DNA of 64,000 nt from Candidatus Heimdallarchaeum aukensis (GCA_021513695.1 CP084166.1:512001-576000); one strand, 5' to 3'; numbered from the stretch's first letter, positions 30,709 through 40,335 are shown. Notes: generated by a model from the sequence alone, not told the origin. Translations and numbers: made by a program.

Positions 30709-32706
30709 TTGACACTACAAGATTCTGACTTTGATATTCCAGAAGAATTTTCTTCTTATAACAAGTTTTTAATGGAAAACAAGAAAATCATTTTACCTAA
30801 AATAAAAGAATGGATGAAAAAAGGAAAAACTTTTTTCCAATCATTGGTCTATGCATGTGATGAGATAGGTTCAGAGCTACCTACTCCAGATGTGTTAAAA
30901 CCCACTTTCTTAGAAATAGCTATAATTGGATATTTCCTTTTAGATGAATATGAAAAAGTATTGAAAATAGAGACTATAAGCGATAATTTTCTTTCAAACT
31001 ACTTTAAATATAAATCTGCTTGGTTATTAGGTCACAAGAAAGCACAAGCTTACCTAGCTGATCTTGTACCGTCATTAATGGAGTTAAAAAAGCAAAATAA
31101 AGAGATTTACGAAATCTGTAACAATATAATCTCTCTTGAGGTAAGTTTCATCTCTTCTAACAAAGAAAATATATTAAAACATGCTGCACAGTTCAAGCAA
31201 GATCTTTTTGATAAATCACTTATCACTACTTTTCCTCTTTTGGCTATCGAAATTGCAGGAGATTTAGCTTACAGAGAATACAGAACTGGAGATCCTGCTT
31301 TCTCTGGTTGGCTTGAAATCTATAAAGAATTAGTAGAAGCTTTTAACATGGATTCTAGGAGATTAGACTGCTACACCATTTTAGGTGGTCTTTACAGGTA
31401 CAAGGGATATTTAGAAGATGCAGAAGAATATTACAAAAGAGCTATGGAATTATCAGAAAAAATAGGAAACGAAAAAGCATACAACGAAATAATAGCAAAG
31501 ATAGCGGATTTTGAACACACTAGAGGAAACTTTGACGTTGCTTTAAAACTCTGTCTGGATGTCATTCAAAAAACTGAAGGAAAAGGAGAGATTAACAAGT
31601 CAATTTACATAAATTTAGGCGAAATCTTAATTAAACAACAAAAGTACGAAGAAGCAGTAAAATATCTGAAAAAATTAGAGAACGATGAGTCTCAAGAAAC
31701 AGCTATAATTAACATTCTCCACGGTTATGCCTTAACTAAATTAGATGAAAAAGAATTATATAATAGTGGAATCAAATTACTGGAAAAGGGAGGAGCTTTA
31801 AGCGAGAAAACAGGAAATAGAAGATTTTTGACAATTTATTACTATTACAGAGGAAGAGCTCATTTAGACAGTTATGACTTGTCTTCAGCTATAAAGAACT
31901 TTGAAATGTGTTATAATACAGCAATAAATACAGAGTTTCAATATGTTCTTTTTTCTCAAATCTACTTGGCAGTAGCTTATCTTCACCGTTTCAAAGTTTC
32001 TCAACAAGATGCAGATCTTACTCAATCAAAACATTATGTTGCAAATGTAATCACGATATGTAAAGAGCAAAACTTACCTATTTTGGCTAACATTCTACTT
32101 CTACAAGGTCAAATTCTAATGGTTTTAGAGGAGTATATTGATGCAAAGCATATTTTAGAACAAGCAGTGATTGAAGCAGAAAAAGTTGAACTTGACTGGA
32201 CAAAAGAAAAAGCTGAACAGTATCTAGAACTATTGTACTCTAATGAACGAATTAAAAACCAAATTCTGATAAATGAAATAACTGAACTAATTGATAATAT
32301 TGCCAAGTTTTCTTTCCAGAAAAATATTGAGTATTTACCTCATTTTTACTTCTTAATGCTTATGTATAAAGGAAATGAATTAATTACTAAAAGTTTTGAC
32401 AAAGAATTTGAAGAGAAAAGTCACTTAGTTAAAGATTTGGTTCATGCAGTAGCTAGCTTCGATGAATATGAGGGTATAAGAAGCATAAATTTTGAAGGAA
32501 TAACGTTAATAATAGAAAAAGTAAGAAATATTACAGCAATACTTGCTAGTGATTCAGATAGTTTTAATGCTAGAATAAAAATAATTGAAATATTAAAAAA
32601 CTTGCAAAAATACCTCCAATCAATTGTAACAGAAGAAGATGAGATATTCATTACTATATTAAAAGATAAAGCACTGAGAATAATAGAAAAAACTTTTGAA
32701 ACCTAA
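30709..32706 (+). CDS. TPR-like repeat protein
   Basis: TPR-like helical repeats (YTILGGLYRYKGYLEDAEEYYKRAMEL, IYINLGEILIKQQKYEEAVKYLKKL) are seen. The start codon is uncertain. Confidence 0.4.
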   Translation: MTLQDSDFDIPEEFSSYNKFLMENKKIILPKIKEWMKKGKTFFQSLVYACDEIGSELPTPDVLKPTFLEIAIIGYFLLDEYEKVLKIETISDNFLSNYFKYKSAWLLGHKKAQAYLADLVPSLMELKKQNKEIYEICNNIISLEVSFISSNKENILKHAAQFKQDLFDKSLITTFPLLAIEIAGDLAYREYRTGDPAFSGWLEIYKELVEAFNMDSRRLDCYTILGGLYRYKGYLEDAEEYYKRAMELSEKIGNEKAYNEIIAKIADFEHTRGNFDVALKLCLDVIQKTEGKGEINKSIYINLGEILIKQQKYEEAVKYLKKLENDESQETAIINILHGYALTKLDEKELYNSGIKLLEKGGALSEKTGNRRFLTIYYYYRGRAHLDSYDLSSAIKNFEMCYNTAINTEFQYVLFSQIYLAVAYLHRFKVSQQDADLTQSKHYVANVITICKEQNLPILANILLLQGQILMVLEEYIDAKHILEQAVIEAEKVELDWTKEKAEQYLELLYSNERIKNQILINEITELIDNIAKFSFQKNIEYLPHFYFLMLMYKGNELITKSFDKEFEEKSHLVKDLVHAVASFDEYEGIRSINFEGITLIIEKVRNITAILASDSDSFNARIKIIEILKNLQKYLQSIVTEEDEIFITILKDKALRIIEKTFET

Positions 32707-32725
32707 AAAAAGAAAGAAAAAGAAT

Positions 32726-33670
32726 CTATAATTTAGGTAAGATCTCTTTTGAGAAAAGTTTCATTTGTTCAATTTCTTGGTTTCCTGGAAACATAAAAAT
32801 AAAATGACTAACACCTAATTTTTTGTAATCTTTGATTTTTGTAGTTATTTCTTCAATTGTTCCGTGCATTGCTCCTTCATATCTCTTCTCAAGTTCTTCT
32901 AAAGTAAATCCTCTTTTTTCAGCTATTTCTCTCCAAGCTTTAATCTTTTCTTCTTCGCTTTCATAAATCCTGGTCCAGATACCATAACTTCTTAGTAGAG
33001 AATCTGGTTTTCTATCATTTTTTTCACAAAGTTCATCTAACAAATTCATTTTCTCTTCAAAAACTTCAAGAGGATAAGCCCAAGCTAAATTTATTCCATC
33101 AGCATATTTAGAAGCAAGTGTAAGCATCTTGATTTTGGCATACATTGTACCTACCCAAATTTTCATTGGATTTTGAACAGGTTTGGGAAAAGAAATAGCA
33201 TCTTTTAACTGATAATACTTACCTTCAAAAGTAGCCTTGTCTTCAGCCCATAACTTTCTAATTACTTGAATCGCTTCTTCAAGCATTCCTAATCTATCTT
33301 TTACACTGGGAAAAGGAATACCATAGGCTGAATACTCTAACTCTTTCCACCCTGCACCATATCCGAAGTCTATTCTACCATTAGAATAATTATCTAATGA
33401 AGCAATTTGTTTAGCAAGAACTGAAGGATAACGATAATTGTTACACAATACTAATGAACCAATTCTTAACTTTGTTGTATATGAAACTGCAGCCATCATT
33501 GCAACTATACACTCTTGACTTTCCAGATTTGTTGCATCTGCATTTAACATAAAATGATCAGAAAACCAAGCGTGAGTGAAACCCAATTTTTCTGCATTTT
33601 GTACTATATATTTTATTTGATCAAAAGAATAGCCAAATTGTGGTTCAATTTGTATTCCATAGTATGACAT
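32726..33670 (-). CDS. Luciferase-like monooxygenase (LLM) family, F420-dependent oxidoreductase type
   Basis: FTHAWFSDHF and the TIM-barrel LLM pattern are seen. The protein is ~314 aa. Confidence 0.7.
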   Translation of the reverse strand: MSYYGIQIEPQFGYSFDQIKYIVQNAEKLGFTHAWFSDHFMLNADATNLESQECIVAMMAAVSYTTKLRIGSLVLCNNYRYPSVLAKQIASLDNYSNGRIDFGYGAGWKELEYSAYGIPFPSVKDRLGMLEEAIQVIRKLWAEDKATFEGKYYQLKDAISFPKPVQNPMKIWVGTMYAKIKMLTLASKYADGINLAWAYPLEVFEEKMNLLDELCEKNDRKPDSLLRSYGIWTRIYESEEEKIKAWREIAEKRGFTLEELEKRYEGAMHGTIEEITTKIKDYKKLGVSHFIFMFPGNQEIEQMKLFSKEILPKL

Positions 33671-33729: not shown

Positions 33730-34242
33730 TTGATTCAATTTTGTATAGGAACAATATTGATAGAACAGTTTATCTTTTCTTCAAATAATAAGGAAGCATT
33801 AAAATATAAGTTCAGAAAAAAAGTAATTATGCAAGAGTCTGCACTTTTTCGATATTTTGACCAATTTGAAAGAACGGACTTGCTATTCATCAATTTCGCA
33901 TTTCTGATTATAATTATCCCAGGACTAATTTTCGGATTGTTAAGTAAAATCATTTGGATGTTTTATGTAGCTTTAGTTGTACTTTTTTTCTTTGTTTGTT
34001 GGAATTGTCTTTACTTCTACATAAAATTCAAACTAAACAAACAAGAAAAAGAACTGCTTAAGACTATTCCAAGTTTTCCTCAACTCGACTTCTGTGATTA
34101 TTGTGGTAAATCATTAGAAAATTCAGCTCCTGCAGTGATTGATAATAATCTAATCATTATTTGCCCTCATTGTGGAAAAGAAAATATTGTTAAATCAGAG
34201 GAAGAAATTGAACAAATAAACAATGAACAAGCAGATTCATAA
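33730..34242 (+). CDS. Small membrane protein with C-terminal zinc-ribbon (CxxC..CxxC)
   Basis: Two TM helices are followed by CDYCGKS...CPHCGKEN. It is the first gene of a tight three-gene co-directional block. Confidence 0.4.
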   Translation: MIQFCIGTILIEQFIFSSNNKEALKYKFRKKVIMQESALFRYFDQFERTDLLFINFAFLIIIIPGLIFGLLSKIIWMFYVALVVLFFFVCWNCLYFYIKFKLNKQEKELLKTIPSFPQLDFCDYCGKSLENSAPAVIDNNLIIICPHCGKENIVKSEEEIEQINNEQADS

Positions 34243-34259
34243 TTTAAGGAGATAAAAAA

Positions 34260-35960
34260 ATGAAAAAAAAAGCGAAAATACTTTTTTTACTAATTGTTTT
34301 CTCAAACTTAGTTTTTGTTTTGGTAACAAATACAAAAAACATTAATGCATTAAAAGAGCCTATTACTAGTGATTCTAATGAATTTCGAGCGTATAGTTTT
34401 GCTGTTCCTTACATGTACACTGATGTTACGATAAAGAAAGATGGCTCGATAGATATTTCTTATACCATTAACTTTACAAATTTTATTTTTGGAAATACTA
34501 TTGACATTATAGATATTGGTTTTCCTAATAAACATTACAATCTTAAAAGTGTTCAAGCTTGGATAGATGGTTATGAGATTACTGATATAAGGGAGAGTGA
34601 ATACATTAGTATAGGAGTAGAGATACATTTAGGTAGTCATTCTATTTTACCTGGTGAGAGCGCTGTATTGGTAGTTAAAGGGAATAATCCTAAAATGGTT
34701 TTTAAAGACGATACCAAAAAAAATTTTGCTAGTTGTGTTTTCAGGCAAACTTGGTTTAGTTCACAATTTGCTTTTGGAGAAACTGAAAGAAGAGTGAGAT
34801 TTTATTTTCCTGAAGATTTAACTGATATGAATGAAGTAGAAAAAAGAGTTTCGGACACTAGTGTAAATTTCACTAGGGAAGCAGATTACGTCGAGTTTAG
34901 CAAAACCAGTACTCCCTATGATAATGATTTTTATGTGGGTGTAGGAATACCTTCTAACTATGTTGATAAAATGTATAGGGAGTTTTGGGTTTATAGATTT
35001 GATGAACTTGTTGCTCAAGCATTGTTTTTCCTTTTCTTCTTTGGATTCTTTGGGATATTTTTCTATGTTTTTTGTATTTATCCCCTAAAAGAAAGAAAAA
35101 GATATCTCCCTCCAACTATAAAGTCGACAGGAGGAGCTGTAAGAATGGGTTTGAAACCTTCCGAAGCAGCTATTATCTTAGAAAAACCTCTTACTCTTGT
35201 AGCTTCTTTAGTTATTTACGAAATGATGTCAGAAGGATTGATTACTGTTAAACAAAAAGAACCCTTAAGATTTAAAGTTGAGATATCTACTAAAGAGAAA
35301 TCCAAATTACCTACTTACCAGAAGCATATTATTAATGGAATTAAGAAAAGAGAAAAATCAGACTTAAAATGGGAAAAGGGAAGTGTTTCTGGTGCTCGAC
35401 CACACGATCCTTTTGACCAAGATTACATAAGAAAAGCGCTTTTATCCTTAATTAGAGAAACAACTATGAAAATGAAAGGGTATAACCTGAAGAAAACAAA
35501 GAAGTACTATAATGAATTAATAGAAAGAGCTTGGCAAGACATGAAAAAAGAAAGACCAGAACTAGAAAATGCTTTCCTATGGATAATGATAGATGAAGAT
35601 TATGACGACAGAATGAAAGATCATTATCATGACTATTATTACCCTTCATGGTATGTTTATCATTATCATACCCATTATTATGGTAGAAATAGAGGAAGAG
35701 GAAGAGATAGGATAACTGGTAGAGAATTAAGAAAATCTGGTTTTAGAAGAACAAAGATAACAGATAGGGGACAGATAATCCCTGGAACAGATTTCAAGCG
35801 AATACAAAAAAATATTGTTAGAAGCCCAAGAAAATTACTTTCGTCAGTAAAATCAAAGACCAGACCTGTTTCTAGCAGCTCGGGAAGAAGTGGAGGGGGA
35901 GGAGGAGGTTGTGCTTGTGCTTGTGCTTGCGCTTGCGCTTGTGCCGGAGGAGGACGATAA
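34260..35960 (+). CDS. Bitopic membrane protein (DUF2207-like layout) with Gly6-(Cys-Ala)6 C-terminal tail
   Basis: A signal peptide and a ~230-aa ectodomain are followed by the TM helix LFFLFFFGFFGIFFYVFCIYPL. The ~300-aa cytoplasmic region contains DHYHDYYYPSWYVYHYHTHYYG, an RG-rich stretch, and ends ...SGRSGGGGGGCACACACACACAGGGR*. Confidence 0.5.
   Translation: MKKKAKILFLLIVFSNLVFVLVTNTKNINALKEPITSDSNEFRAYSFAVPYMYTDVTIKKDGSIDISYTINFTNFIFGNTIDIIDIGFPNKHYNLKSVQAWIDGYEITDIRESEYISIGVEIHLGSHSILPGESAVLVVKGNNPKMVFKDDTKKNFASCVFRQTWFSSQFAFGETERRVRFYFPEDLTDMNEVEKRVSDTSVNFTREADYVEFSKTSTPYDNDFYVGVGIPSNYVDKMYREFWVYRFDELVAQALFFLFFFGFFGIFFYVFCIYPLKERKRYLPPTIKSTGGAVRMGLKPSEAAIILEKPLTLVASLVIYEMMSEGLITVKQKEPLRFKVEISTKEKSKLPTYQKHIINGIKKREKSDLKWEKGSVSGARPHDPFDQDYIRKALLSLIRETTMKMKGYNLKKTKKYYNELIERAWQDMKKERPELENAFLWIMIDEDYDDRMKDHYHDYYYPSWYVYHYHTHYYGRNRGRGRDRITGRELRKSGFRRTKITDRGQIIPGTDFKRIQKNIVRSPRKLLSSVKSKTRPVSSSSGRSGGGGGGCACACACACACAGGGR
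35910..35945 (+). repeat. Imperfect hexanucleotide microsatellite (TGTGCT)3(TGCGCT)2(TGTGCC) encoding (Cys-Ala)6
   Basis: Read directly. It is in frame with the 34260..35960 CDS and is flanked by GGAGGAGG purine runs on both sides. Confidence 0.9.
35946..35954 (+). promoter_or_regulatory. Shine-Dalgarno-like site (GGAGGAGGA) 7 nt upstream of the rSAM gene ATG at 35962
   Basis: Sequence and spacing. The upstream gene's stop codon lies between the SD and the ATG, which suggests translational coupling. Confidence 0.5.
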
Positions 35961-35961
35961 A

Positions 35962-37284
35962 ATGCCAAAAGAAGAAAAAGAAGAACAGAAAAAGATGTTT
36001 CACCTAAGAAACGAAGAAACCTTTACTAGAATGCATTTAAGGAAAGAAAAGAAAGGACAAGGAATACTAATAGTTAACGCCAACAGAATCTTTCACCTAA
36101 ATAAAACAGCAACTCAATTCGTTGAATACATAATAGAAGGAAAAAAAGATGAAGAAATAATAAGAAAAATGGTTAACAAATACAATGTTCACGAATCACA
36201 AATAAGAACAGATCTAATGAATCTGAAGATCGCAATAGAAGATATAGTAAATAAACCAGATATTGACCCGGTACAAGAACTGTTTGACGAAGATATGGAA
36301 ATGGAGAGAATGATTTTTTCAGCTCCATTGAGAATGGACTTGGCTATAACTTACAAATGCAATAACAAATGTGTCAAATGCTACGTTGAAGAAAAAAGAG
36401 AAATAAAAGAATTAACAACAGAAGAATGGAAAAAAGTCTTAGATAAACTGTGGGATATAGGTATTCCCCACGTAACATTTACTGGAGGAGAACCCACAAC
36501 AAGAAAAGATTTAGTGAAACTAGTAGAATACGCAGAAGATATAGGCATAGTAACGGGACTAATAACCAACGGAAGAAACCTGAAAGACAAAAAGTTAGTA
36601 GAAGAACTAGTAGCAGCAGGAATAGATCATTTCCAAATAACAATAGAAAGCCATATACCAGAAGTACATGATAAATTAACAGGAGTAAAAGGATCGTGGG
36701 AAGAAACAGTAGAAGGAATAAAAAACGTTGTACCTACACCAGTGTTTATTATGACAAACACAACTCTAGTTCCAGAAAACATAAAAGAAATAGATAAAAC
36801 AATAGAATTTTTAGCTAAGTTGGGAATAGACCACTTCGCAGCAAACGGAATAATAAAAGCTGGAGGAGGAAAAGATGACTCACTAGACTTAACAGTAGAA
36901 GAACTAAACAAAACACTAGATACAATAATGAAGAAAGCTGAAGAAATGAAAATGAGATTTCTATGGTACTCACCAACAAGATATTGTGAATTTAACCCAG
37001 TAAAGAAAGGACTAGGAGTAAAACAATGTACAGCAGGAAATATAGCAATGGCAATAGAACCAGATGGACAAGTAATACCATGCCAAAGCTACTTTGAACC
37101 ACTAGGAAACATATTAACTACTCCATGGAAAAAAATATGGAACCATAAAACAACAAAAAGAATAAGAAAAAGAAAATACTTGCCCCAAGAATGCAAAGGC
37201 TGCCCAGAAAAAGAAATATGCGGAGGAGGATGCCCTCTAAATTATCAAGCGCCAATAACTGTTTGCAGAGACGCTCTTTCGTAA
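35962..37284 (+). CDS. Radical SAM / SPASM-domain enzyme with N-terminal PqqD-like RRE (RiPP-type maturase)
   Basis: An N-terminal ~90-aa PqqD-like segment (ILIVNANRIFHLNKTATQFVEYIIEGKKDEEIIRKMVNKYNVHESQIRTDLMNLKIAIEDIV) is present. The rSAM motif is CNNKCVKCY (Cx3Cx2C). The SPASM motif is CTAGN...PCQSY...CKGCPEKEICGGGCP (Cx2Cx5Cx3C). Confidence 0.8.
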   Translation: MPKEEKEEQKKMFHLRNEETFTRMHLRKEKKGQGILIVNANRIFHLNKTATQFVEYIIEGKKDEEIIRKMVNKYNVHESQIRTDLMNLKIAIEDIVNKPDIDPVQELFDEDMEMERMIFSAPLRMDLAITYKCNNKCVKCYVEEKREIKELTTEEWKKVLDKLWDIGIPHVTFTGGEPTTRKDLVKLVEYAEDIGIVTGLITNGRNLKDKKLVEELVAAGIDHFQITIESHIPEVHDKLTGVKGSWEETVEGIKNVVPTPVFIMTNTTLVPENIKEIDKTIEFLAKLGIDHFAANGIIKAGGGKDDSLDLTVEELNKTLDTIMKKAEEMKMRFLWYSPTRYCEFNPVKKGLGVKQCTAGNIAMAIEPDGQVIPCQSYFEPLGNILTTPWKKIWNHKTTKRIRKRKYLPQECKGCPEKEICGGGCPLNYQAPITVCRDALS

Positions 37285-37321: not shown

Positions 37322-37639
37322 ACCATTTTTAATAGGATAAGTAAAATTACATCTTTTTTCCTTTTCCTGTTTTTTCCCATTCACTAAACTTATCTATTAG
37401 TTCGTCAATAGCATGTGTTATCTCTTCAGTGATTTTTTCAACAATAATTAATTTGTCATCTTCAATTCGAATAGACAAAATAGAACCGAGTTCAACCAAC
37501 CATAATTCAAGTTCATTAAGATCTTCAAAACCTAATTTTTCCTGTAAAGTAATTAAAGGTATTTTAGAATTATTAGATAGGACTTTGAATAATTTTTAGC
37601 TCTTTCTATTTCAATATCGCGAGAATCAAAATAGTTCAT
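37322..37639 (-). pseudogene. Duplicated 3' tail fragment of the 40618..43875 paralog (frameshifted)
   Basis: About 290 bp is near-identical to 40618..40906. It reads [22 protein letters not shown] and then, in another frame, ...GFEDLNELELWLVELGS.LSIRIEDDKLIIVEKITEEITHAIDELIDKFSEWEKTGKGKK. Its ATG overlaps the TGA of the upstream gene (ATGA). Confidence 0.5.
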
Positions 37640-40335
37640 TTTTTCTTCCCCTTTCCTTTACGTTCCCACTCACTGAACTGTTTGAGTAAATCATCAATAG
37701 CTGTAGTCATATCTTCAGAAACAAATTCGCCCTCAAATTGTAAGTCAAAGATTACTTCGTCTCTTTCGATTCTATTCGGTACATCCTTTGAATAGATGTA
37801 TAACCATAATTTCATAATCTCTATATCTTCAAAATCTAATAATGGAGAAAGCTTATTTAGACTTATTTTGTCGTAAACTAAACTAATTTTCTTAAGACGG
37901 TCAAGTATTTTATTATTAGTTTTTTTATCATTAATTATTTTTGTTAATTCAGACAATGTTCTATTATCTTCATCCAGTATATCTTTAACTATCGTTACTT
38001 TCTTTGTTGCAAAATCAAAAACTTCTGACCAATTATGTGCAAAAGATGGAAATAGTTTCTTAATTGTAGAAAAAGTATCACCTTTAAAAGAGATTATATA
38101 ATTTAAGAATGATAGCAATTTTTTATAACTAGCTATTATAGGCTTAAACTCTTGATCAGACCACTTTTCAATGAGTTTAGTTAACATTTCTTTTTTGAAA
38201 CTTTGTAAATTTGTAAAATTAATAAGATCAACTAAATAATTTATTTTACTGAGAACGGTATTATTTACGAAATAATCTAATTGATCATATGTTTTGTTTA
38301 ATTGTTCTCTTTCTATTTTTCTTAATTTTCTCTTATTTGAGCTGATAAAAAGGTAATCTTTAAGAAATAGTTTCAATTTTTCAAGATATTTTATAATCTC
38401 CTCAATTGAACTAATAAATAATAGTAAGGAAGAAGTGTTTATGAAAATCTTATCAAATTCTTCATTTAATTTAGTTTGCATATTTATTATCCCTGAGAAA
38501 TTTTCTCTTATCCTTAACCTTATTTTGTGTTCATAAACAAAAAAAAGAGGTAGGATAACAGATATAAGAAGTATAAGAGAAAAACATATTTTTTCAATTG
38601 GTTTAAGATAAATACTCTTTTTTAAAGGATTTTTACCATTTTCTATTTCCCAACCATCGAACAAACCGTCATCATCAGTATCAGAATCTAAAGGGTCAGT
38701 TCCAGCTAGATACTCTTCCAAATTAGTTAAACCATCTCCGTCCAGATCTTCTGATGAATCATATAACAAAGGGTTTAATGAATTACATAGTTCCCATCCA
38801 TCAGGTATGCCATCATCATCAGTATCGGGATCATTAGGGTCAGTTCCAGCTTGATATTCTTCTAAATTAGTTAAACTGTCTTTATCTTTGTCAACATAAG
38901 TGTCATTACTCAAAGGATTCAATAAAAATTCTACTTCCCAACTATCAGGTATGCCATCATCATCAGTATCAGAATCTAAAGGGTCAGTAGAATGCAAGGT
39001 CACTTCTTGAAAATCAGATAAGCCATCATCGTCAGTGTCTGAATCTAAAGGGTCAGTACTGTAAATAGTCACTTCTTGAAAATCAGAAAAGCCATCATCG
39101 TCAGTGTCTGAATCTAAAGGGTCAGTACTGTAAATAGTCACTTCATCTCCATCGTTCAAGCTATCATCGTCAGTGTCTGAATCTAAAGGGTCAGTACTGT
39201 AAATAGTCACTTCATCTCCATCGTTCAAGCTATCATCGTCAGTGTCAGAATCCAAAGGGTCAGTAGAATTCTGATACTCTTCTAAATTAGTTAATCCATC
39301 GCTATCTGGGTCTTCTGCAGAATCATCGATAGTAGTGTTTAAACCATTATTTTCTTCCCATTTGTCAAGCATATTATCTTGGTCTAAGTCTACATGCATG
39401 GGATAAGGATCAAAATTGTTAGCTGAACCATCTATAGGATATGGTCCTGTTCCACTCCAGTCATACCAATAGTTACCTGTTGTACCAGAATAAAATTTAT
39501 TGTATGTCCCATAATCACATGCTTGAGAAGAACCACCTAGATTATTTTTTATTAAGAAGTTTTTTACAAATATTTCATTTTTAGAGCTCTCATTTAGATA
39601 TATACCATAAGAATAACTATTTATTATAATATTGGAAGTAAAAGTATTTTTGTTAGAAACATCAAAGAGAATACCATAATTACTACTATTTACAACAGTA
39701 TTTGAAATAAAAGAATTGTTAGAACTACAAGAAAAAAATATGCCATCATAATAACTATTTGTTATAGTATTGGAAGTAAAAGTATTATTAAAACTAGAAT
39801 GAAGAGACATACCATAATTACTACATATCACAGAGTTGAAGGTAAAAGTATTATTGTTACTACAATAGAGGAAAATACCTACATTATAGCTATTTATAGT
39901 ATTATTAAATACAGTTATTGTTCCATCTGCAACAGAATAAATATAAATACCATAAAATGAACTTGAACCGCCCCCTTCAAGATAACAATCTCGAATAAGA
40001 ATATACTTTGTTGTCCCAGATATCTTTATACCATGAGATGTAGAGTCAGTTATACTATAGTTTTCAATGACATAAGGGTTATCTTTTGTCCCAGAACCAG
40101 GAAAAACAGTAAGATCATCATCAGACTCAATAAGAATAGGCGAATGAACTGTATAAACTTTTTTTACAGCTCTAGTTTCATTTGAATTTACACTAGACAT
40201 TGAATCTATTGTTATTTGATTAGATTGTAGAACCATATTTTCCTCTATTTGAGTCGAAAGGTAAACAAAGAAAACTGTAGTTGTTATTAATATTAGTACT
40301 AAACTTAATTGTATATAAGTTGCTATTCTTTTCAT
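37636..40335 (-). CDS. Receptor-like type-I membrane protein: right-handed beta-helix, thrombospondin-type-3-like Ca-binding repeats, TM, conserved cytoplasmic C-terminal module
   Basis: A signal anchor is followed by PbH1-like repeats (NNTFTSNTI..., NNSFISNTV...), ~10 DxDxDG/TSP3-like units ([15 protein letters not shown]) and a TM helix ([19 protein letters not shown]). The cytoplasmic helical region ends ...[21 protein letters not shown]. Confidence 0.65.
38974..39249 (-). repeat. In-frame 69-bp tandem repeat, 4 units (2 identical, plus diverged flanking units), encoding 23-aa TSP3-like repeats
   Basis: Units lie at 38974, 39043, 39112 and 39181. Units 3 and 4 differ by 1 nt. Each encodes [12 protein letters not shown][SG]L[NS]D[GF][DQ]EVTIY. 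Confidence 0.85.

Follow-up and report, generated by a model that had tools for sequence, protein, structure and literature searches.

A conserved cassette pairing a (Cys-Ala)n-tailed membrane protein with a putative RRE-radical SAM-SPASM maturase in Archaea and Bacteria

Radical SAM-SPASM systems with cysteine-rich targets

The described systems that most resemble the locus analyzed here include those of sactipeptides and ranthipeptides, whose maturases (AlbA, SkfB, CteB/SCIFF maturase, PapB) share with it a RiPP recognition element (RRE), a radical-SAM core, and a SPASM region with two auxiliary clusters, as well as a Cys-rich substrate placed after a recognition sequence. PapB illustrates how several repeated Cys motifs can be handled by a single enzyme. 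In conceptual terms, a modification retained on a protein finds its nearest precedent in QhpD, a radical SAM-SPASM enzyme that introduces several Cys thioether crosslinks into QhpC, the gamma subunit of quinohemoprotein amine dehydrogenase, which remains in the functional protein complex. To our knowledge, the product of the characterized RRE-radical SAM-SPASM systems with Cys-rich cores (sactipeptides and ranthipeptides, together with QhpC as modified by the SPASM enzyme QhpD) is a thioether. The SCIFF and ACGX-repeat pairs, which are curated and whose biological role is not known, likewise consist of a widely conserved radical SAM-SPASM enzyme and a Cys-rich target, and look like housekeeping rather than antibiotic-like systems. 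Lastly, in the borosins (OphMA-type), the core lies, as here, at the very C-terminal end of a large folded protein.

The locus in question lies in a window of 64,000 nucleotides from Candidatus Heimdallarchaeum aukensis (GCA_021513695.1, CP084166.1:512001-576000), this term being used for the whole stretch of DNA that was analyzed; positions 33730-37284 harbor three co-directional ORFs (Table 1). In contrast to the 30-60-aa peptides of the sactipeptide and ranthipeptide systems, the putative substrate forms the C-terminal end of a membrane protein of ~550 aa; its core has a strict Cys-Ala alternation, invariant across phyla, and no protease or exporter recurs in its surroundings. The ACGX system shares with it a short Cys/Ala/Gly repeat, which is, however, ACGX instead of CA, and the SCIFF and ACGX targets are small peptides, unlike the 566-aa protein of this window. 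QhpC differs in its small size, its solubility and periplasmic location, its Cys-Asp/Glu links, and its quinone cofactor, and no sequence relationship between gene 3 and QhpD was detected in this analysis. In borosins, the large protein is itself the modifying methyltransferase and the product is released, whereas here the enzyme is a separate radical SAM protein and no conserved release machinery was found. No description of the system was retrieved from Pfam, NCBIfam, the source names, or the searchable literature, in agreement with an earlier note on this DNA, whose author knew of no such family.

Organization of the cassette and features of its products

The earlier note had placed three packed genes in this region. 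All three ORFs were found on the + strand with the boundaries reported in Table 1; the second gap is indeed 1 nt, with GGAGGAGGA just 5' of the gene 3 ATG, whereas the first, given as 18 nt, is 17 nt.

Table 1. Features of the cassette (positions counted from the first nucleotide of the window).
Feature	Position	Strand	Basis
Gene 1: zinc-ribbon membrane protein, two TM segments, C-terminal CDYCG...CPHCG	33730..34242	+	ORF
Gene 2: 566-aa bitopic membrane protein bearing the tail, putative substrate	34260..35960	+	ORF, AF2, homologs
Conserved amphipathic segment, aa ~505-538, ...DFKRIQKNIVRSPRKLLSSVKSKTRPV, candidate RRE recognition site	35772..35873	+	Alignment, predicted helices
Ser/Gly-rich linker GRSGGGGGG, between recognition segment and core	35883..35909	+	
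Core: (Cys-Ala)6 (35910-35945) and GGGR (35946-35957)	35910..35957	+	Invariant C-terminus of the family
Stop codon of gene 2	35958-35960	+	
Gene 3: RRE-radical SAM-SPASM enzyme, 440 aa, putative maturase	35962..37284	+	Pfam domains
PqqD-like RiPP recognition element, aa 38-86 of gene 3	36073..36219	+	Pfam
CxxxCxxC radical-SAM cluster motif, C133/C137/C140	36358..36381	+	Invariant in alignment
SPASM region, eight conserved Cys (C342, C356, C374, C411, C414, C420, C424, C435)	36985..37266	+	Pfam, alignment

The domain architecture proposed for gene 3 was recovered by Pfam, with PqqD (residues 38-86; 26.7 bits vs. a cutoff of 23.4), Radical_SAM (129-284; 100.6 vs. 29.5), and SPASM (356-415; 45.4 vs. 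21.5) all above their gathering scores. The sequence harbors the motifs C133x3C137x2C140 and C411x2C414x5C420x3C424; C133, C137, and C140 are invariant across 12 diverse family members, as is the HLR motif (aa 25-27) located just N-terminal to the PqqD match, and the eight conserved Cys of the SPASM region are ligands enough for two auxiliary Fe-S clusters. The invariance of the CxxxCxxC and SPASM cysteines suggests that the enzyme carries out real radical catalysis. Its closest PDB sequences are the peptide maturases SkfB (thioether-forming; the best, E = 8e-25), PqqE, SuiB, and CteB, and its NCBI name is "PqqD family peptide modification chaperone".

None of the curated NCBIfam families reaches its cutoff on gene 3, the best curated matches (PqqE, NirJ2, and AhbD) being all at generic levels. 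The following assignments were rejected: PqqE (TIGR02109; 152.7 bits vs. a cutoff of 381.35), SkfB (TIGR04403; 114 vs. 300), AlbA (NF012164; 81 vs. 850), StsB (NF045574; 107 vs. 625), PapB (NF047865; 73 vs. 340), the mycofactocin maturase MftC (TIGR03962; 106.6 bits vs. 265), and the radical SAM enzyme of the ACGX-repeat system (TIGR04340; 79 bits vs. 400), the neighboring repeat being CA and not ACGX. No pqq genes recur in the neighborhoods examined; the SCIFF maturase is absent from the best 25 NCBIfam matches of gene 3, and QhpD from the best matches listed. These scores, together with the pairing of its close relatives with the tail protein, speak against the membership of gene 3 in a known family with a different target. 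At the superfamily level, gene 3 is predicted to code for an RRE-dependent radical SAM/SPASM peptide maturase, and its two-way adjacency with the (CA)n-tailed gene, described below, provides it with a genetically linked putative peptide substrate.

Gene 2 ends with ...GRSGGGGGGCACACACACACAGGGR, that is, with GGGGGG-(CA)6-GGGR and a stop codon. In the AF2 model, an N-terminal helix (residues 2-31; signal or anchor) is followed by a beta-sandwich ectodomain (47-231; block pLDDT mostly >90), a single TM helix (247-273) and then KERKR, a helical/winged-helix domain (300-474) placed in the cytoplasm, and a disordered tail (539-566). This layout is that expected of a bitopic protein whose C-terminus is cytoplasmic, as the earlier note had supposed; this, in turn, would bring the tail within reach of an oxygen-sensitive Fe-S enzyme. 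One search retrieved 26 homologs, another 1118 cluster representatives at E ≤ 1e-3, and the body is about 30-35% conserved. A His/Tyr-rich stretch does exist upstream of the tail, where it had been pointed out, but P462 and W464 are the only residues in it that come close to invariance family-wide. The candidate recognition segment reads ...KNIVRS..LLSSVKSKTRPV in the window and contains two helices predicted by AF2 (512-519 and 523-534); its bacterial counterpart is F..xV/IT..TNPxP (alignment columns 701-760). Motifs upstream of the core recur in other loci, and the candidate docking motif is not uniform, differing from lineage to lineage.

A relationship with DUF2207 had also been suggested. 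The layout does resemble that of DUF2207/YciQ proteins (signal, beta-rich ectodomain, TM, cytoplasmic winged-helix-like region, Gly-rich C-terminus, the latter being GGGAGGGAGGGGGGGW in Escherichia coli YciQ), a resemblance that is not proof of homology, and the Ornatilinea member is named "DUF2207 domain-containing" in UniProt. However, DUF2207_C matched gene 2 with 13.3 bits vs. a cutoff of 33, the N-terminal DUF2207 model did not match it, the Ornatilinea ortholog gave no Pfam match whatever, and hhalign against E. coli YciQ returned a probability of 8%. Membership (PF09972/PF20990) was rejected on these sub-gathering scores and on the hhalign result, and the kinship appears to be only remote; moreover, YciQ, unlike gene 2, has a Cys-free tail and no radical SAM neighbor.

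Two hydrophobic segments are present in the gene 1 product, along with CxxC...CxxC at its C-terminus; the Pfam matches are weak and concern zinc-ribbon families. The comparison with a 136-aa ortholog at another locus (L001) indicates that translation probably begins at M34 (33829). A protein with a TM segment and CxxCG...CPxC is found directly 5' of the tail gene in 55 out of 80 evaluable loci, and BLAST clustering retrieved an analogous upstream protein at 67 loci among the matches listed. The zinc-ribbon gene is the third conserved component of the cassette.

Two-way linkage of the tail and the enzyme

The final 14 residues (alignment columns C553-R566) are invariant and represent the sole invariant block of a family whose mean column identity is 35%. 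Among the 324 unique tails compared, neither the Cys nor the Ala between them varies, and the 160 occurrences of CACACAGGGR-stop derive from 154 distinct DNA strings. Both observations suggest that each residue is constrained, which would suit an enzyme substrate better than a loose metal-binding motif. A sole invariant block of this kind, encoded by so many DNA strings, goes far beyond what chance would produce. Homologs devoid of the Cys tail and of radical SAM neighbors would have contradicted the earlier reading; among the best 150 of the 1118 cluster representatives, a Cys-Ala (or Cys-Val/Ala) tail is present on every full-length member.

The DNA of species genomes was scanned for CACACAGGGR-stop, which retrieved at least 119 loci in at least eight phyla of Bacteria and Archaea. 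The loci listed belong mostly to Chloroflexota, and also to Thermoplasmatota, Planctomycetota, Asgard, and other phyla, the host lineages being mostly ones having anaerobic members; in each of them the motif is the C-terminus of a gene 2 family protein. A radical SAM relative is present in at least 99 of the 120 evaluable tail loci, among the matches listed, and is usually directly downstream: it lies within 150 nt downstream in 73 of them and upstream in 10, with scores of ~380-740 bits when directly downstream and ~280-320 when upstream. Most tail loci without the enzyme have too little flanking sequence, and at five (L012, L035, L039, L054, L120) it is absent despite adequate flanks.

In the opposite direction, a metagenome scan seeded with the enzyme alone yielded 80 loci, and a (CA)n-tailed gene occurs in cis in about 72 of the 78 evaluable ones. 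The tailed ORF is directly upstream in 62 of the 80 and at 0.4-1.6 kb in 7, and was recognized by inspection in 3 more, while no tailed gene was found within 4.5 kb at about six to seven enzyme loci (L128, L136, L153, L154, L198, L159, L190). Adjacency is kept in Bacteria and Archaea at ~28-30% body identity, and one locus (L005) has the order rSAM, pseudo-rSAM, tail gene; the linkage survives gene-order rearrangement and spans two domains of life. These data show a two-way, cross-domain gene linkage of tail and enzyme, and the functional pairing put forward in the earlier note is borne out by comparative genomics in both directions. The cassette is not Asgard-specific, occurring mainly in Chloroflexota.

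In principle, the two genes might have no functional link, the tail being a low-complexity or hexanucleotide-repeat artifact and the adjacency inherited synteny. In the window, the coding sequence of the tail is in fact a (TGYGCN)n repeat, though an imperfect one, and low-complexity Gly tails occur on related DUF2207 and TPM-type proteins, e.g., YciQ. Nevertheless, the two-way linkage and the many synonymous versions of one peptide effectively refute this scenario, to which we give almost no credit; the adjacency at low body identity, also in rearranged order, and a fusion protein (P0112) argue in the same direction.

The fusion concerns one of the accessory genes. Only the zinc-ribbon protein, the radical SAM enzyme, a pseudo-rSAM, and a methyltransferase recur in the 120 tail-locus neighborhoods, with neither a recurring protease or exporter family nor another conserved candidate substrate gene. 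The pseudo-rSAM, added in other lineages, is a catalytically dead paralog in which the RRE is conserved; one lineage has it joined to the tail protein in a single fusion (P0112; BLASTP E = 1e-56). The methyltransferase (class I) is present in 60 of the 120 tail loci, among the matches listed, and also beside a short-form core gene. Neither gene was found within the window.

Possible fates of the tail

The pairing of tail and enzyme suggests that a whole protein, instead of a small peptide, undergoes a modification not yet described. As in the earlier note, the modification of the tail is inferred, in this case from genomics. The scenario that we favor, and hold to be reasonably probable, is that of a conserved maturation cassette in which the RRE docks upstream, the core is covalently modified, most likely to thioethers, and the product is retained by the protein. 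The 566-aa protein would sit in the membrane with the beta-sandwich outside and the winged-helix/helical domain and the flexible tail in the cytoplasm; the N-terminal PqqD-like RRE of the enzyme would dock on the amphipathic segment ~15-45 residues before the core, and the Gly/Ser linker would give the (Cys-Ala)n-GGGR core access to the active site, where 5'-deoxyadenosyl radical chemistry would alter it. The likeliest product would consist of intramolecular thioether crosslinks that join Cys sulfur to a carbon of the neighboring Ala/Gly (sactionine- or ranthionine-type), making the tail a rigid, non-reducible crosslinked ladder. Neither cleaved nor exported, this product would be kept as a structural or cofactor-like element, and the modified membrane protein would have the small zinc-ribbon protein of the membrane as its working partner. 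The dead RRE-bearing paralog of other lineages would probably be a scaffold or chaperone, and their class I SAM methyltransferase would probably perform a further tailoring step. In support of this scenario, a related radical SAM enzyme (253 bits) was also found together with a (CA)5GGGR core whose protein body escapes the family profile, which suggests that the core may be portable between protein bodies.

The tail might instead be the substrate of a different radical SAM chemistry, i.e., L-to-D epimerization, conversion of Cys to formylglycine, C-C crosslinking, or a new reaction, a possibility that we take seriously while doubting it. The linkage evidence is identical for the two readings, and sequence similarity does not tell the chemistry of these enzymes apart. 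Epimerization of every second residue would be in keeping with the strictly alternating sequence and its invariant Ala; the epimerized Ala or Cys would yield a strand of alternating D and L residues like that of epipeptides and polytheonamides. PoyD-type epimerases, however, are not SPASM enzymes. Formylglycine formation would be anSME-like, but anSMEs have no RRE and their target motif, C/S-x-P/A-x-R, is absent from the tail. The frequent methyltransferase, also found beside the short-form core gene, might, in some lineages, perform S- or C-methylation. What favors thioethers over all these options is the product of the RRE-radical SAM-SPASM systems with Cys-rich cores mentioned above.

Alternatively, the tail might not be modified at all and represent a metal- or Fe-S-binding (metallothionein-like) site, the enzyme and the zinc-ribbon protein being its partners in a membrane complex; in this case, the enzyme would act on another substrate or exchange clusters or electrons with the tail. 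CxCxC is a typical pattern for the binding of metals through thiolates, a zinc ribbon is present in the partner protein, and metal-thiolate sites would be stable in anaerobes, which most of the host lineages include. On the other hand, the X of a metal-binding CxC normally varies, whereas Ala is fixed here; the enzyme carries a peptide-binding RRE, kept even in the dead paralog, which in P0112 is fused to the tail protein; its invariant cluster-binding cysteines would imply radical catalysis, and the neighborhoods offer no other conserved candidate substrate. On balance, we judge an unmodified metal site to be unlikely.

A further scenario is that of a classical RiPP, in which the large protein would serve as an oversized leader and the (CA)n peptide would be cut at the Gly-rich linker and released. 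The succession of recognition segment, Gly-rich linker, and core is precursor-like, and one locus (L210) possibly harbors a stand-alone 73-aa ORF with the same core. Such a release appears very improbable, given that no protease or transporter recurs in the 120 neighborhoods, that the core is invariant across phyla whereas secreted RiPP cores are hypervariable, and that the ectodomain and cytoplasmic domains are conserved and, according to the model, well folded.

Gene anatomy and family placement of the enzyme

The earlier note had placed three co-directional genes at 33730-37284, and the ORFs of the window confirm them at these coordinates. The first intergenic gap measures 17 nt instead of the 18 nt claimed; gene 3 begins, as proposed, 1 nt past the stop codon of gene 2 and is preceded by a Shine-Dalgarno-like stretch, GGAGGAGGA. 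Gene 1 spans 170 aa if counted from its first TTG, and its real length is probably 137 aa (start M34); its weak Pfam matches are zinc-ribbon families. The RRE, radical SAM (rSAM) and SPASM domains attributed to gene 3 were all recovered above the Pfam gathering scores: PqqD (residues 38-86), Radical_SAM (129-284), and SPASM (356-415). UJG41272.1, from Candidatus Heimdallarchaeum aukensis, has exactly the same sequence as the enzyme. Two further readings of the region were rejected: the GTG at 35890, as an alternative beginning of the rSAM ORF, is a frame shadow of the Gly/Cys-Ala coding repeat, and the antisense ORF over the tail is likewise a shadow of the tail-coding repeat, not a gene.

The search of the NCBIfam models (release of June 2026) did not retrieve any model at cutoff for the window rSAM, the best being PqqE (153 versus a cutoff of 381); the scores were far under the cutoffs of SkfB, StsB, MftC, AlbA, PapB, ACGX, and other models, and the proteins of Ornatilinea likewise fell under every cutoff. 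Among solved structures, SkfB, PqqE, SuiB, and CteB are nearest in sequence. In 12 diverse members of the enzyme family, C133/C137/C140, eight cysteines of the SPASM region and an HLR motif in the RRE region are all invariant. In public databases the proteins bear generic labels ("radical SAM protein", "PqqD family peptide modification chaperone", "hypothetical protein", "DUF2207 domain-containing protein"), and full-text searches of the literature retrieved nothing on a cassette of tail and rSAM. The proposal that no described family covers this system agrees with these searches of Pfam, NCBIfam, public names, and literature.

In the AlphaFold2 model of the gene 2 protein (mean pLDDT 77.8), an N-terminal helix precedes a confident beta-sandwich (residues 47-231); the chain then forms a single TM helix (247-273), continues through KERKR to a winged-helix/helical domain (300-474), and ends in a disordered tail. 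This modelled topology would place the tail in the cytoplasm, in agreement with the bitopic arrangement suggested before. The relation to DUF2207, also suggested, is marginal: Pfam DUF2207_C scores 13 bits (cutoff 33), and hhalign gives the tail protein and E. coli YciQ a probability of 8%. YciQ shares the overall layout, and its terminus is also Gly-rich (GGGAGGGAGGGGGGGW); however, its tail is Cys-free and no rSAM gene adjoins it.

Positions of the features considered (window positions, unless a compared locus, L, is indicated)
Feature	Position	Strand	Description
TPR protein (665 aa, +) and luciferase-like monooxygenase (-)	30709-33670	+/-	upstream of the cassette
Gene 1, small membrane protein	33730-34242	+	two hydrophobic segments; C-terminal CDYCG...CPHCG zinc ribbon
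Gene 2, tail protein	34260-35960	+	566 aa; terminus GRSGGGGGG-CACACACACACA-GGGR*
(CA)6 core of gene 2	35910-35945	+	Cys-Ala repeat
Rejected GTG extension of the rSAM ORF	35890-35961	+	reads VLVLVLALALV
Rejected antisense ORF	35678-35968	-	reads AQAQAQAQAQPPPPPP
50-aa ORF	37347-37499	-	terminus ...LIDKFSEWEKTGKGKKM
899-aa protein	37636-40335	-	NosD/beta-helix domain, bacterial TSP3 repeats, TM segment
IS200/RAYT-like ORF	L202:2-637		between a remnant tail-coding end and the rSAM gene
Short-form locus	L206:1340-3652		core in another frame
Short-form locus	L208:1420-1761		core in frame with a TM segment
Short-form locus	L210:198-1189		73-aa core ORF
Two tail genes	L098:3-3482		in tandem

Conservation and distribution of the Cys-Ala tail

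A first homology search retrieved 26 Asgard-type homologs (28-47% identity; one partial sequence at 86%), and every full-length one terminates with ...CACACA(G)CACACAGGGR. The alignment of the tail proteins has a mean column identity of 35%, with residues 553-566 invariant; the tail is therefore the most conserved portion of the gene 2 protein. Re-searching the word-indexed protein database with the alignment profile returned only the same 25 proteins and no tail-less distant relatives. An exhaustive profile search, clustered at 50% identity, gave 1118 representatives at E<=1e-3 (382 at E<=1e-30). Among the best 150 of these 1118, taken together with the first set, the canonical tail is present in 144 sequences and close variants (for example, SCVCACxxCACACACVSCACACAGGGxx) in 12; the 15 tail-less sequences all end inside the conserved body, three being labelled partial, and look like fragments.

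The analysis of 324 unique tails revealed cores with 5-10 cysteines, separated nearly always by Ala and at times by Val, the commonest form being CACACACA-G-CACACA-GGGR; the tail protein of Ornatilinea apprima ends with ...GGGGCACACACAGCACACAGGGR. A less probable reading of the tail is an unmodified metal-thiolate site. The peptide CACACAGGGR* is encoded by 154 distinct DNA strings in 160 occurrences, with every Cys, Ala, Gly, Arg, and stop codon in use. This excludes an origin of the tail as a DNA-repeat artefact and implies that selection acts on the peptide and not on the DNA repeat.

One genome per GTDB species was scanned with the pattern TGYGCN x3-GGN x3-MGN-stop, which gave at least 119 loci; all matches listed fall at the C-terminus of tail-protein family ORFs. 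According to a rough hand tally over 80 titled loci among the matches listed, about 51 belong to Chloroflexota, mostly Anaerolineae and including the cultured Ornatilinea apprima P3M-1, about six to Methanomassiliicoccales/Thermoplasmatota, about six to Planctomycetota, and about four to Heimdall/Hodarchaeota, with one locus each in Acidobacteriota, Aminicenantes, Hydrogenedentales, Sabulitectum, Polyangiaceae, a Pseudomonadota MAG, and Syntrophothermus. Since most of the family is bacterial, an Asgard-specific or eukaryote-related meaning was rejected.

Linkage of tail and enzyme, and the other members of the cassette

The pairing of tail and rSAM, claimed from one genome, holds in both directions. 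Starting from the tail, a phmmer search of six-frame ORFs, with the window rSAM as query, gave a homolog in 105 of the 125 tail loci listed, and called genes include an rSAM relative in 99 of 120. Of the rSAM genes in these 120 loci, 73 start no more than 150 nt downstream, on the same strand, and 10 are located upstream; the scores are about 380-740 bits for those immediately downstream and about 280-320 bits for those upstream. Where no match was obtained, the relevant flank is mostly missing from the sequence, and the enzyme is truly missing nearby, despite adequate flanks, in only about five loci (L012, L035, L039, L054, and L120).

Starting from the enzyme, a reverse scan of metagenomes seeded with an alignment of enzymes alone gave 80 loci (43-68% identity). 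A (CA)n-type tail ORF lies immediately upstream in 62 and 0.4-1.6 kb upstream in seven; inspection added three more, one extended (L194), one cut by the contig end (L152), and one with an IS200-like insertion (L202). Six or seven enzyme loci, L128, L136, L153, L154, and L198 among them, are real orphans lacking a tail gene within 4.5 kb. Locus L005, with the gene order Band_7, small ORF, zinc-ribbon ORF, rSAM, pseudo-rSAM, and tail gene, shows that the pairing survives a rearrangement. A lack of any functional link between tail and enzyme is effectively excluded by the linkage seen from either side and by the 154 DNA versions of the same peptide.

The clustering of the ORFs of the 120 listed loci yielded four recurrent families: the tail protein, the rSAM with its paralog, the zinc-ribbon protein, and a methyltransferase. 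Clustering places the small TM and zinc-ribbon protein immediately before the tail gene in 67 loci, and its motif recurs there in 55 of 80 evaluable loci. Nearly all bacterial and Thermoplasmatota versions (L008, L011, L016, L027, L056, and others) end with (E/Q)(E/A/S)PKW, those of bacteria with ...EEPKW; the Heimdall versions (window and L001) have no PKW-type ending, and gene 1 of the window is the divergent Heimdall version of this partner. The methyltransferase (class I SAM, Methyltransf_11, about 250 aa) occurs in 60 of the 120 loci; tblastn with three cassette methyltransferases did not retrieve any in the 64-kb window. What remains in the paralog is the PqqD-like N-terminus and a portion of the rSAM fold; CxxxCxxC and the SPASM cysteines are lost, for which reason we call it a pseudo-rSAM. 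P0112, a cluster representative of 948 aa, is a natural fusion: its first 336 aa form a pseudo-rSAM/RRE that matches the free-standing paralog of L005 (BLASTP E=1e-56), and a TM segment and a complete tail protein come after it.

The TPR and luciferase-like genes are syntenic in a Heimdall relative (L001/L002) and missing from other lineages, and are thus probably unrelated to the cassette. Synteny within Heimdallarchaeia only led us to reject a role for these neighbours and for the beta-helix surface protein. The latter, of 899 aa, and the 50-aa ORF just downstream of it have a common C-terminal motif.

Putative modification of the tail and variation of the protein body

RRE-rSAM-SPASM enzymes rank among the chief sources of novel peptide chemistry; to our knowledge, nearly all their known substrates are small, lineage-restricted, secreted peptides. 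Here, in contrast, the putative substrate belongs to a large conserved membrane protein, whose tail it forms, its core does not vary over at least eight phyla and two domains of life, no conserved release machinery accompanies it, and a dead paralog exists, fused to the tail protein in P0112. Taken together, these differences suggest that anaerobes would use the modification for housekeeping, at the level of the protein, and not as an antibiotic. The kind of enzyme is already known; the combination of an invariant Cys-Ala terminus on a large membrane protein, a cross-domain, housekeeping-like distribution, a dead paralog that is sometimes fused, and no export genes appears to be undescribed in the libraries and literature searched.

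In the model that has the best support, the RRE of the rSAM would bind a conserved amphipathic segment upstream of the linker (about residues 505-538 in the window; F..VT..TNPxP in bacteria) and the docked enzyme would then modify the (CA)n core in the cytoplasm, the fixed Ala residues being possible crosslink acceptors or steric requirements. Thioether crosslinking is the most likely chemistry, by analogy with the characterised RRE-rSAM-SPASM systems with Cys-rich cores, which, as far as we know, proceed in this way; other radical chemistry (epimerisation, formylglycine formation, or C-C bonds) might act on the tail instead. As for the fate of the product, a classical RiPP would have its core peptide cleaved off; no protease or transporter, however, is recurrent in the ORF clustering of the 120 listed neighbourhoods, and this absence, together with the conserved folded domains, suggests that the modified tail remains on the protein.

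Tentatively, we consider an undescribed post-translational modification system of Bacteria and Archaea, in which a dedicated rSAM might remodel covalently, and in a new way, the invariant alternating Cys-Ala strand at the cytoplasmic terminus of a membrane protein (e.g., into an uninterrupted thioether ladder or a strand of alternating D and L residues); the product, tethered to the protein, might serve as a cofactor, a metal site, or a structural element. If this possible, though rather doubtful, reading were true, chemistry and product would lack a described counterpart, and for a protein family of more than 1000 clusters (50% identity) there would be a first approach to function. Confirmation would also provide a new substrate class, possibly with new chemistry that acts on (CA)n as a minimal motif, a first functional clue for a large family of "hypothetical/DUF2207-like" membrane proteins, and a short portable tag for enzymatic crosslinking. 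The system is directly testable, since the full cassette, with the tail protein WP_075064617, the rSAM WP_075064616, and the pseudo-rSAM WP_075064615, is present in the cultured O. apprima P3M-1.

A search with the tail only (42-aa query) retrieved mostly C-terminal fragments of the tail-protein family, plus a short-form variant whose ORFs have (CA)5GGGR, then AGCSxKDFY and about 20 residues. In loci L206 and L207, a gene for a TM protein comes first, then a more distant rSAM-SPASM (scoring 253 bits with the family profile), then a 270-aa ORF with signal, ectodomain, and TM, missed by the family HMM, and last the core, whose different frame could reflect a frameshift or separate genes. In L208 the core ORF includes a TM segment; in L210 it is apparently alone, with no ORF upstream and a methyltransferase-like ORF downstream. 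These loci suggest that the module of core and enzyme may sit on varied protein bodies, only a hint given the short contigs and possible frameshifts. Within the family itself, a tandem duplication of the beta-sandwich ectodomain occurs in the representatives P0027, P0033, P0045, P0048, and P0062 (about 770-840 aa), and locus L098 carries two tail genes.
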